Assembly: GCF_003019035.1 (NCBI RefSeq)
Contig: NZ_CP027447.1
Length of the DNA: 64,000 bases
Reading direction: 5' to 3' (one strand)
Source: Escherichia coli
Lineage (GTDB): Bacteria > Pseudomonadota > Gammaproteobacteria > Enterobacterales > Enterobacteriaceae
Translations under genes and position numbers: made by a program
Shown here: positions 32,533 through 35,621 of the stretch, piece after piece
How positions within the stretch are numbered: position 1 is the stretch's first letter
Layout of the letters: every line of letters begins with the position of its first letter
Notes under the pieces: model-generated
Told to the model about the DNA's origin: nothing
What the model saw: the letters and a program-made list of their open reading frames with translations, nothing else
Databases searched by the model: none

Positions 32533-32765
32533 TGAGATCCCGTTATTTTTATCAATTTTTGTTGCTATCCGATCGCAAAAAAGCCACGTCATATGATCAG
32601 ATAATTCTGATAATGATAGACGCTATTTAACACTTCACACGGTTTGTATATGGAAAAGCATTTTGCTTTTTGTATTCAATTTAGACAGAATTTTATTAAT
32701 CATTTCAGGGTAATGGGGTGATGAGATGTTGCGTAACAGGGCCAGAAGGCTAGACTACAAAATAA

Positions 32766-33770
<1,005 letters not shown>

Positions 33771-33816
33771 CAAAAGCAATTTCTCCGGGATTCTGTATAC
33801 AAAAACGCCGTAAAGT

Positions 33817-33830
33817 TTGAGCGAAGTCAA
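33817..33830 (+). promoter_or_regulatory. FNR box of the fnrS promoter
   Basis: TTGAGCGAAGTCAA (TTGAT-N4-ATCAA-like) centred about 42 bp upstream of the FnrS 5' end (class II position). Confidence 0.65.
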
Positions 33831-33865
33831 TAAACTCCCTACCTATTCAGGGCAATATCTCTCTC

Positions 33866-33987
33866 GCAGGTGAATGCAACGTCAAGCGATGGGCGTTGCG
33901 CTCCATATTGTCTTACTTCCTTTTTTGAATTACTGCATAGCACAATTGATTCGTACGACGCCGACTTTGATGAGTCGGCTTTTTTTT
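33866..33987 (+). ncRNA. fnrS: FnrS small regulatory RNA
   Basis: GCAGGTGAATGCAACGTCAAGCGATGGGCG...GCCGACTTTGATGAGTCGGCTTTTTTT recognised; terminal hairpin + T7 run. Confidence 0.85.
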
Positions 33988-34044
33988 GCCTGTTATTTAT
34001 CAGCGTCTACCCTTTAAGAGTCCACCCAATGACCGGAGGGAAAT

Positions 34045-34218
34045 ATGACGACACTTATTTATTTGCAAATTCCTGTCCCTGAACCGATTCCTGGCGATCC
34101 TGTTCCAGTGCCCGATCCGATCCCTCGCCCGCAACCCATGCCTGACCCACCACCCGATGAAGAACCGATTAAATTGTCGCATCGTGAGCGTAGATCTGCG
34201 AGGATACGCGCCTGCTAA
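34045..34218 (+). CDS. unannotated 57-aa proline-rich small ORF (hypothetical)
   Basis: ATG preceded by GGAGGG SD at 5-nt spacing; MTTLIYLQIPVPEPIPGDPVPVPDPIPRPQPMPDPPPDEEPIKLSHRERRSARIRAC; below the 60-aa cut-off of the ORF track. Confidence 0.4.
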   Translation: MTTLIYLQIPVPEPIPGDPVPVPDPIPRPQPMPDPPPDEEPIKLSHRERRSARIRAC

Positions 34219-34247
34219 CTTTGCGTCGATGACCACGAGAATAGATT

Positions 34248-35621
34248 GTGACCGCTTTTTCTACCCTGAATGTTTTGCCTCCCGCCCAACTCACGAACCT
34301 TAATGAGTTGGGTTATTTAACCATGACGCTGGTGCAGGCCGCCGCGCTTCCGGCGATCCTTGCCGGAAAAGATGTTCGCGTGCAGGCGAAAACCGGCAGC
34401 GGCAAAACGGCGGCTTTTGGCCTCGGGCTGCTACAGAAAATTGATGCGTCGCTATTTCAGACCCAGGCTTTAGTGCTGTGTCCTACGCGTGAACTGGCGG
34501 ATCAGGTGGCAGGTGAATTGCGTCGGCTGGCGCGTTTTCTGCCAAATACCAAAATTTTGACGTTGTGCGGTGGTCAACCGTTCGGTATGCAGCGTGATTC
34601 GTTGCAACATGCGCCGCATATTATCGTGGCAACGCCGGGTCGTTTGCTGGATCACTTGCAAAAAGGCACGGTATCACTGGATGCGCTGAATACTTTGGTG
34701 ATGGATGAGGCCGACCGCATGCTGGATATGGGATTTAGCGATGCCATTGATGATGTCATCCGTTTTGCGCCTGCATCTCGACAGACGCTTTTGTTTTCGG
34801 CAACCTGGCCGGAAGCCATCACCGCAATCAGCGGACGAGTGCAACGCGATCCTTTAGCGATTGAAATTGACTCAACAGATGCTCTGCCACCTATTGAACA
34901 ACAATTTTATGAGACATCCAGCAAAGGCAAAATTCCGCTGTTGCAACGGTTATTAAGTTTGCATCAGCCATCCTCTTGCGTGGTGTTTTGCAATACCAAA
35001 AAAGATTGTCAGGCTGTCTGCGACGCGCTGAATGACATAGGGCAAAGTGCATTGTCGTTACATGGCGATCTGGAGCAACGTGACCGCGATCAGACCCTGG
35101 TACGTTTTGCTAACGGTAGCGCTCGTGTGCTGGTCGCGACGGATGTTGCTGCGCGTGGTCTTGATATTAAATCGCTTGAGCTGGTAGTGAACTTTGAACT
35201 GGCGTGGGACCCTGAAGTTCATGTACATCGCATCGGTCGTACAGCGCGTGCAGGAAATAGCGGTCTGGCGATCAGTTTCTGTGCCCCGGAAGAAGCACAG
35301 CGGGCCAATATCATTTCTGACATGTTGCAGATAAAACTTAACTGGCAAACGCCGCCAGTTAATAGTTCCATTGTGCCGCTGGAAGCAGAAATGGCAACGT
35401 TATGTATCGATGGCGGGAAAAAAGCCAAAATGCGCCCGGGTGATGTATTAGGTGCGCTGACAGGAGACATCGGGCTTGATGGCGCAGATATTGGCAAAAT
35501 CGCCGTGCATCCGGCGCATGTCTATGTCGCGGTGCGTCAGGCTGTTGCTCATAAAGCATGGAAACAGTTACAGGGCGGGAAGATTAAAGGAAAAACGTGC
35601 CGGGTGCGGTTATTAAAATAA
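34248..35621 (+). CDS. dbpA: ATP-dependent DEAD-box RNA helicase (23S rRNA-specific)
   Basis: 457 aa, GTG start; Walker A AKTGSGKT, DEAD box VMDEADRML, SAT, HRIGRTAR. Confidence 0.93.
   Translation: MTAFSTLNVLPPAQLTNLNELGYLTMTLVQAAALPAILAGKDVRVQAKTGSGKTAAFGLGLLQKIDASLFQTQALVLCPTRELADQVAGELRRLARFLPNTKILTLCGGQPFGMQRDSLQHAPHIIVATPGRLLDHLQKGTVSLDALNTLVMDEADRMLDMGFSDAIDDVIRFAPASRQTLLFSATWPEAITAISGRVQRDPLAIEIDSTDALPPIEQQFYETSSKGKIPLLQRLLSLHQPSSCVVFCNTKKDCQAVCDALNDIGQSALSLHGDLEQRDRDQTLVRFANGSARVLVATDVAARGLDIKSLELVVNFELAWDPEVHVHRIGRTARAGNSGLAISFCAPEEAQRANIISDMLQIKLNWQTPPVNSSIVPLEAEMATLCIDGGKKAKMRPGDVLGALTGDIGLDGADIGKIAVHPAHVYVAVRQAVAHKAWKQLQGGKIKGKTCRVRLLK

Follow-up and report, generated by a model that had tools for sequence, protein, structure and literature searches.

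We analysed a window of 64,000 nucleotides (nt) of Escherichia coli DNA (contig NZ_CP027447.1 of RefSeq assembly GCF_003019035.1), and focus here on a 57-codon, proline-rich open reading frame (ORF) that lies between fnrS, which specifies a small RNA, and dbpA, the gene for the RNA helicase DbpA. This ORF is almost certainly ynaL, a known gene of the Enterobacteriaceae that encodes a non-globular, extended, proline-rich peptide of 57 residues with a basic tail. YnaL is made in E. coli K-12, as published previously, and our analysis reveals that residues ~18-57 are kept by purifying selection. In addition, the last third of the gene contains a block without any synonymous substitution that lies at a fixed distance from the dbpA start, a concrete feature of this locus. 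The explanation that best accommodates the whole of these findings is that this known gene doubles as a translated leader, acting in cis within a ynaL-dbpA unit, and we consider its chance of being correct to be just short of even.

The ORF as ynaL and the selection on its peptide

The ORF starts with ATG at 34045 and ends with TAA at 34216-34218, and its 57 codons translate to MTTLIYLQIPVPEPIPGDPVPVPDPIPRPQPMPDPPPDEEPIKLSHRERRSARIRAC. Coordinates, codon number and translation are identical to those in the initial annotation of this stretch, which had been made from the sequence alone. That annotation had described the ORF as unannotated, which is incorrect since RefSeq E. coli genomes carry ynaL at this place; the omission was limited to the annotation's own track of ORFs of at least 60 residues. 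A megablast search with the region 33780-34300 against 5,426 complete E. coli genomes found it in 5,390, and there RefSeq annotates “ynaL: proline-rich small protein YnaL” (WP_001296046.1), with dbpA next. Residues 1-57 match positions 1-57 of the Pfam profile PF23677 “YnaL” (E=2.1e-40, 136.9 bits, with a cut-off of 27). The possibility that the annotated ynaL is located at some other locus is excluded by the reference-genome annotation together with the published coordinates and flanks. Judged by sequence, the full-length profile match, the position between fnrS and dbpA (the former recognized by Rfam family RF01796, the latter with its GTG at 34248, both as initially described) and the annotation all place the ORF in the YnaL family.

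The gene had already been named, detected and given a Pfam family, and the ORF is thus a re-discovery. Table 1 of VanOrsdel et al. 2018 (PMC6001520) lists the identical 57-residue sequence under the name YnaL at K-12 positions 1409308-1409481, flanked by fnrS and dbpA with all three on the same strand, so that the K-12 gene and the one in the window are the same gene in the same orientation. YnaL was detected in that study in strain MG1655 by means of a chromosomal SPA tag and immunoblotting, and was one of 13 small proteins that had already been positive in a tetracycline ribosome-profiling screen. The authors considered that ynaL is possibly in an operon with dbpA and suggested a function related to the adjacent gene. 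Our literature search on the function of ynaL, and on elongation factor P (EF-P), Rho or CsrA at the ynaL locus, yielded nothing beyond this paper. When the fnrS-dbpA intergenic sequence was shuffled, 0.28% of the shuffled sequences yielded an ATG ORF of at least 57 codons preceded by a Shine-Dalgarno (SD) sequence. The reality of the ORF is settled independently of this test, because it is conserved across relatives.

Relatives of YnaL numbered 162 in a protein search and 208 in a profile search. All of them carry PF23677 and all belong to genera of the Enterobacteriaceae, those named being Escherichia, Salmonella, Citrobacter, Enterobacter, Klebsiella, Raoultella, Kosakonia, Leclercia, Lelliottia, Pseudocitrobacter, Superficieibacter, Intestinirhabdus and Silvania. 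For comparisons at the DNA level we used a set of 35 Enterobacteriaceae species with the ynaL-dbpA region. The gene order zntB(CorA)-(fnrS)-ynaL-dbpA-ttcA is constant in all 35 species and in every genus examined. Among the relatives the N-terminal ~15 residues and the exact start position vary, and from approximately residue 18 to the C-terminus the peptide is near-invariant (...DPxPxPDPIPRPQPMPDPPPDEEPIK(L/M)SH...RSARIRAC). Per-codon analysis of the proline-rich core, codons 18-40, shows that the amino acids are fixed and that third positions vary freely, with a ratio of nonsynonymous to synonymous substitution (dN/dS) of ~0.07, compared to 0.043 for dbpA. With a dS as high as 1.41, this ratio indicates purifying selection at the protein level. 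The comparison of synonymous and non-synonymous change in related genomes, proposed as a check in the initial annotation, thus came out in favor of selection on the peptide, and the suggestion made there of a genuine small protein is borne out both by this ratio and by the published SPA-tag detection of the identical sequence.

Variants of different length occur within the family. In E. coli strain E69 (locus L010, 2501-2641) an in-frame 33-nt deletion, apparently between CCTGTNCC direct repeats, leaves a peptide of 46 residues that has lost EPIPGDPVPVP; the reading frame is intact, as are the frozen block and the 33 conserved residues at the C-terminus. The gene is longer by 4-5 codons in Klebsiella quasipneumoniae (L032, 1350-1710) and Raoultella terrigena (L033), with the stop codon 14 nt before the dbpA GTG, and by 1-2 codons in some Citrobacter.

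Proline accounts for 16 of the 57 residues (28%, rather than the “about 35%” first given) and for 50% of those within residues 10-41. The other features of composition were recovered as they had been described, with 12 overlapping P-x-P units, a PPP run at residues 35-37 and a basic tail in which 7 of the last 15 residues are lysine, arginine or histidine. AlphaFold predicted neither helices nor strands (predicted template modelling score of 0.23), with high local confidence only for the rigid proline-rich residues 21-40, and in this model YnaL is an extended rod and not a globular protein. We considered and rejected TonB as a relative. The matches to NF008084 (E=2.9e-4, 20.8 bits with a cut-off of 315) and PF16031 (E=0.68, 11 bits with a cut-off of 33) are compositional, residing in the (X-Pro)n segment, and it is the proline-rich spacer of TonB alone that aligns to YnaL, which has neither the N-terminal anchor nor the C-terminal domain of TonB.

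Frozen nucleotides and initiation signals upstream of dbpA

Codons 41-46 and 50-56 of ynaL, hereafter blocks 1 and 2 (Table 1), have a dS of 0.000 in 171/171 species pairs. The invariant runs at this 3′ end are 9, 6 and 13 nt long, the 13-mer of block 2 being GAGGATACGCGCC, compared to a longest run of 8 nt in the 1,371 nt of dbpA, which in these species has just 5.3% invariant third positions. Block 2 holds the three rarest E. coli codons (AGA, AGG and AUA) as well as an SD-like GAGG. In every species the distance from the end of the frozen block to the dbpA GUG is 33-35 nt, and it is kept also where the ynaL stop codon is displaced. The 60-nt frozen segment is present in exactly one copy per E. 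coli genome, and a dispersed motif was rejected as its explanation on these grounds.

Table 1 Features of the fnrS-ynaL-dbpA region, with positions in the 64,000-nt window.
Feature	Position	Strand	Details
fnrS small RNA, including intrinsic terminator (stem 33960-33979, then U8 tract)	33866..33983	+	Rfam RF01796, 134.8 bits
Promoter-like TTGCCT (33986-33991)-N16-TACCCT (34008-34013)	33986..34013	+	Candidate ynaL-dbpA promoter, inferred
ynaL Shine-Dalgarno GGAGGG	34035..34040	+	4-nt spacer; core conserved in all loci
ynaL coding sequence	34045..34218	+	57 codons plus TAA; RefSeq WP_001296046.1, Pfam PF23677, published sequence
Proline-rich core, codons 18-40 (DPVPVPDPIPRPQPMPDPPPDEE)	34096..34164	+	dN 0.099, dS 1.41, ratio ~0.07
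Frozen block 1, codons 41-46 (CCG ATT AAA TTG TCG CAT)	34165..34182	+	No synonymous variation
Linker, codons 47-49	34183..34191	+	Variable, GC-rich; several codons and residues at each position
Frozen block 2, codons 50-56 (AGA TCT GCG AGG ATA CGC GCC)	34192..34212	+	dS = 0
ynaL-dbpA spacer, 29 nt	34219..34247	+	Variable except weak dbpA Shine-Dalgarno (GAGA, 34237-34240); no terminator
dbpA start region UGUGAC CG C UUUUUC, GUG and codons 2-5, predicted 3′ helix arm	34247..34261	+	RNAalifold, 24 species
dbpA, ATP-dependent RNA helicase DbpA, 457 residues, GTG start	34248..35621	+	Pfam DEAD, Helicase_C and DbpA domains in orthologous loci

Two predicted RNA structures involve the frozen blocks. 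The RNAalifold consensus for 24 species pairs GAAGAA.CG (34159-34167) and GUCGCA (34176-34181), both within ynaL codons 39-46, with 34247-34261 at the dbpA start, where the predicted partner of GUCGCA is UGUGAC. The outer part of this long-range helix is present in 7/7 single-species minimum free energy folds. The helix may contribute to the frozen sites of block 1; it does not account for block 2. Block 2 itself could form a small hairpin, predicted as either AUCU-GCGA-GGAU or UGCG-AGGAUA-CGCG with GCGA or AGGAUA in the loop, and the linker codons 47-49 are usually complementary to its ACGCGCC, with registers that shift. The sole change in block 2 in Kosakonia, GCGA to GAGA, keeps the GNRA pattern, which is only suggestive. 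The second form of the hairpin (34197-34210, plus strand), drawn from the most frozen part of block 2, would place GGA in a short loop that resembles CsrA binding sites; no link between CsrA and dbpA was found in the literature. In Citrobacter sp. NCU1 (L025, ~2700-2710) dbpA lacks one codon after the GTG (GTGAC---CTTTTTC, giving 456 residues), and this deletion falls within the predicted 3′ arm of the ynaL:dbpA helix.

Several other explanations for the frozen sites were tried and rejected. The hairpin 92 region of 23S rRNA is the recognition target of DbpA. Mimicry of this region by the frozen blocks was evaluated by Smith-Waterman alignment, with scores of 17, 12 and 16, where shuffles averaged 18.3, 14.8 and 16.6. 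Shuffled sequences did at least as well in a fraction of 0.70-1.0, and the alignments map to positions ~70, ~1780 and ~2100 of the 23S rRNA, not to ~2550. Duplex energies for pairing of the blocks with FnrS were no better than those of shuffles (0.13-0.48), and no Rfam family other than FnrS was found in the region even at E ≤ 10. Overlapping reading frames fared no better as a cause. The ATG of a +1-frame ORF (34157-34303) is lost wherever D38 is encoded by GAC, block 1 interrupts the -1 frame with a TAA, and a 78-residue antisense ORF (34000-34236, minus strand) is not conserved as a frame, with no evidence for a gene. The latter is free of stop codons because CCN codons read NGG on the opposite strand.

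Translation initiation signals differ between the two genes. A GGAGG/GAGGG core precedes the ynaL start in all loci, with anti-SD pairing that averages -9.2 kcal/mol over the 35 species, and in the window the GGAGGG is separated from the ATG by aaat, in agreement with the strong ribosome-binding site reported in the initial annotation. The dbpA start is GTG in 35/35 species and its SD pairs at -3.0 kcal/mol, whereas the long ORFs of the window have a median of -5.8. The gap between the genes ranges from 14 to 29 nt across genera, the upper value being that of the window (initially counted as 30 nt). Our terminator scan of the region found no terminator-like site between ynaL and dbpA, and on neither strand did an internal sigma-70-like promoter for dbpA reach the threshold of the scan. 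In E. coli a sigma-54-like match, GG-N10-GC, was considered as a dbpA promoter and rejected, as it is destroyed in Enterobacter (TGC to ATC), and comparisons by eye with sigma-E, sigma-28 and sigma-32 promoters found nothing with the correct spacing. As far as sequence can tell, the locus thus has the makeup of an upstream ORF or coupled cistron, with both genes on the same strand, a short gap, no intervening terminator or promoter and a weak downstream initiation region. The SD of ynaL itself varies among strains, being GGAGGG in the window (34025-34044), AGAGGG in the K-12-type strain CV601gfp (L002, 1746-1765) and AAAGGG in some Escherichia clades, so that the strength of the ynaL ribosome-binding site differs between strains.

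Upstream of ynaL, fnrS is nearly invariant in 29 species and is a neighbor separate from ynaL. The -35-like TTGCCT of a candidate promoter overlaps the tail of the U-tract of the fnrS terminator. The TTGCCT and TACCCT hexamers and their 16-nt spacing are kept in 32/35 species, the sequence of the spacer is variable, and the distance from TACCCT to the ynaL ATG ranges from 27 to 73 nt, the longest being in Klebsiella, where the element is TACGCT. Conserved spacing, a variable spacer and a floating distance to the ATG are the behavior of a weak sigma-70 promoter. Alternatively, CUACCCU could serve as an anti-SD for GGAGGG. In three Citrobacter species (L024, L025 and L026) a 9-nt deletion ~60-45 nt 5′ of the ynaL ATG reduces the spacing from 16 to 7 nt, and the putative promoter would therefore be disabled there; ynaL is extended by 1-2 codons in two of the three.

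The proline-rich segment at 34077-34154 consists of 47% C and 18% G, the top C-over-G skew among 78-nt windows of the 64 kb analysed, and this skew is also seen in 7 other genera. Rho loads on untranslated C-rich, G-poor RNA of this kind. Further upstream, a 15-codon arginine-rich mini-ORF (32726-32773, plus strand) ends 13 nt before the zntB start, in a leader position for this zinc transporter gene; its RefSeq label is “protein YnaN” (gene label ydaN).

A possible translated leader and competing explanations

The cis mechanism that we propose is that ynaL and dbpA form a two-gene unit in which ynaL, the promoter-proximal cistron, serves mainly as a translated leader, a proposal that we hold tentatively and rate somewhat below even. 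It builds on the observed gene identity, selection pattern, frozen block, fixed spacing, asymmetry of the ribosome-binding sites and synteny, and from these we infer the operon structure, the coupling, the involvement of Rho and the role of the nascent chain. Ribosomes would load efficiently at the strong ynaL SD and would then cross a proline-rich stretch that taxes the peptidyl-transferase centre and is also the most C-rich, G-poor (rut-like) RNA of the region. They would terminate 14-29 nt before an intrinsically poor dbpA start, with its GUG and weak SD. The output of dbpA would track the translation of ynaL, either by termination-reinitiation or local unfolding, and/or by shielding of the C-rich RNA from Rho. 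In this control the RNA component would be the last third of ynaL, with its frozen nucleotides and its constant distance to the dbpA GUG. The conserved peptide of ~40 residues is approximately the length of the exit tunnel when the ribosome is at the end of the ORF, which suggests that the nascent chain may modulate ribosome speed.

A number of findings weigh against such a leader. In the ynaL:dbpA helix 98.8% of alignment cells are paired, with 0 compensatory changes, the pairs being invariant or G-U. Since the columns are invariant, covariation neither supports nor refutes the helix and shuffle controls are uninformative. Lineages with E40V break one of its pairs, and the E. coli fold of the region is no more stable than shuffles (z = -0.22). 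Partition function calculations for 15 genera gave an average cost of 6.3 kcal/mol for opening dbpA from -13 to +13, and this cost stays at 6.1-6.6 kcal/mol wherever in ynaL codons 28-52 a 27-nt ribosome footprint is placed, so that the modelling does not support a simple SecM-like unmasking switch. The promoter-like element is weak, matching 7/12 consensus positions and falling short of the threshold used in the consensus scan, and three Citrobacter species have lost its spacing. The C-richness of the segment is an automatic by-product of proline codons. Finally, the ~40 conserved residues are not needed for simple coupling and fit a protein acting in trans equally well, and SPA-tagged YnaL accumulates to a detectable level (PMC6001520). 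The suggestion in the initial annotation that the ORF is an upstream regulatory ORF for dbpA is nonetheless plausible, given the synteny, the lack of a terminator, the fixed spacing of the frozen block and the weak dbpA initiation; support from covariation or from modelled opening of the start was not obtained.

The competing explanations differ in what is taken to be the functional product of ynaL. It is possible, with a chance that we place distinctly below even, that YnaL acts in trans as a polyproline rod with an arginine-rich tail that binds a partner (e.g., DbpA, the pre-50S particle or RNA), with the frozen nucleotides constituting an independent, overlapping 5′ control element of dbpA. 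The strong selection at the amino acid level over 40 residues and the extended, rigid proline-rich segment with its high local AlphaFold confidence both argue for this possibility. However, no fold and no known domain was found in YnaL, the other matches (to the proline-rich region of TonB) being compositional and far below the cut-offs, and the variable N-terminus with conservation up to the end of the ORF fits a nascent-chain role at least as well. Furthermore, DbpA is far more widespread than the Enterobacteriaceae to which YnaL is confined, so that YnaL cannot be an obligatory DbpA cofactor. Also in favor of action in trans are the detection of the tagged protein in cells and the location of ynaL beside dbpA in all genera, in line with the function tied to the adjacent gene that was suggested previously (PMC6001520). 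At the other extreme, ynaL may be no more than a conserved RNA or DNA element with an incidental reading frame. The conservation of the last third of the ORF at the nucleotide level is what would be expected from such an element, but codons 18-40 keep their amino acids at saturated synonymous sites, the SD and the frame are conserved in the 35 species and the 33-nt deletion allele of L010 stays in frame. We consider this non-coding reading hardly credible, as it is already refuted by the dN/dS together with the published detection of YnaL.

DPPPD is a canonical strong EF-P motif. It is present at residues 34-38 of E. coli YnaL, with the PPP codons at 34147-34155, and YnaL synthesis in E. coli therefore probably benefits from EF-P. 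A further explanation is that the PPP run makes ynaL an EF-P-dependent stalling upstream ORF, with the stall as the signal that regulates dbpA. Consistent with this, the motif lies directly 5′ of the predicted helix arm, such that a ribosome whose P site holds codon 36 or 37 would cover 34159-34167, and the proline-codon-rich leader ORFs mgtL and mgtP are known sensors (for MgtL, see PMC11611912). The PPP run is not a property of the whole family, however. E. albertii, C. youngae and Citrobacter Cu233 and wls619 have DPSPD and lack Pro-Pro throughout the peptide, and DPPQED replaces the motif in one C. amalonaticus (S646). Moreover, masking codons 34-40 does not cut the modelled cost of opening the dbpA start, and ynaL is absent from the accessible part of the Δefp/ΔefpL supplementary tables of PMC11611912. 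We therefore regard a stall at PPP as the regulatory signal as quite unlikely. The strong dependence on EF-P that the initial annotation foresaw is reasonable for the E. coli allele, without extending to the lineages with PSP or PPQ, and our literature search for EF-P data on ynaL found none. Ribosomes of efp/efpL mutants stall at XPX motifs with a single proline as well, and EF-P and EfpL assist the XPX-rich leader peptide MgtL (PMC11611912). There may thus be a general dependence on the speed of proline translation, and a broader “proline-speed” sensor survives within the translated-leader explanation that we prefer.

A more specific version of the translated leader can also be put forward, one that we consider unlikely. 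DbpA remodels 23S rRNA around hairpin 92 during 50S assembly. The ynaL ORF would, in this version, be a “peptidyl-transferase performance sensor” for a helicase that matures the peptidyl-transferase centre. The nascent chain of ~40 residues together with the rare codons of the frozen block (AGA, AGG, AUA) would slow or arrest ribosomes just 5′ of the weak dbpA start, and more DbpA would be made when ribosomes or proline-bond formation perform poorly. We propose this version because of the conservation pattern, the fixed spacing and the asymmetry of the ribosome-binding sites; it is weakened by the negative structure modelling and by the lack of conservation of PPP. DbpA has been reported to act as a factor in 50S assembly and to be more abundant in exponential phase (PMC13393375).

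Related leader systems and implications

The nearest functional analogues of such a leader would be the leader ORFs mgtL and mgtP and, more loosely, SecM-secA. In Salmonella and E. coli, mgtL is the leader of mgtA and mgtP that of mgtCBR, and the signal in both is the speed of translation at proline codons, as set by EF-P and proline supply; the read-out of mgtL at mgtA is Rho-dependent termination. As in these systems, ynaL is a short ORF on the same strand directly 5′ of the gene that it may regulate, with alternating P-x-P followed by a basic tail, and its RNA is strongly C-rich and rut-like. We claim no homology. The mgtL and mgtP ORFs have ~17-18 codons, are embedded in long and structured 5′ leaders in which alternative stem-loops are defined, and are not known to yield stable proteins. 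In contrast, ynaL has 57 codons and a conserved peptide of 40 residues, its product accumulates, and no switch between alternative hairpins could be demonstrated.

The likeness to SecM lies in a C-terminal peptide that is conserved and contains proline, behind a variable N-terminal part, and in a 3′ coding RNA that is predicted to pair with the downstream initiation region. However, sequence and family alignment show that YnaL has neither a signal peptide nor the arrest motif FxxxxWIxxxxGIRAGP. Its ending, ...RIRAC-stop, resembles the ...IRAG-P of SecM loosely, and the position of the YnaL stop is not conserved. Unmasking of the downstream start as in SecM was not seen in our modelling of ynaL. 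Among ribosome-biogenesis DEAD-box helicases, DeaD/CsdA is also controlled by an upstream leader, with expression set in part through Rho-dependent termination (PMC7430678). The leader of deaD is untranslated and 838 nt long, and deaD is autoregulated by its protein, whereas the element upstream of dbpA is a translated ORF of 57 codons.

Selection on the core of the peptide and a last third with synonymous sites frozen in 35 species, at a fixed distance from a poor dbpA start, make the function of ynaL and its relation to dbpA directly testable. If ynaL is not a leader of the kind proposed here, it adds to the conserved small proteins whose function is unknown. If it is a translated leader through which proline translation or ribosome quality is read out, a small protein would be linked to the homeostasis of ribosome assembly. 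Were the sensor version to hold, ynaL would represent a new class of arrest peptide or leader and would provide the first described control circuit for dbpA.

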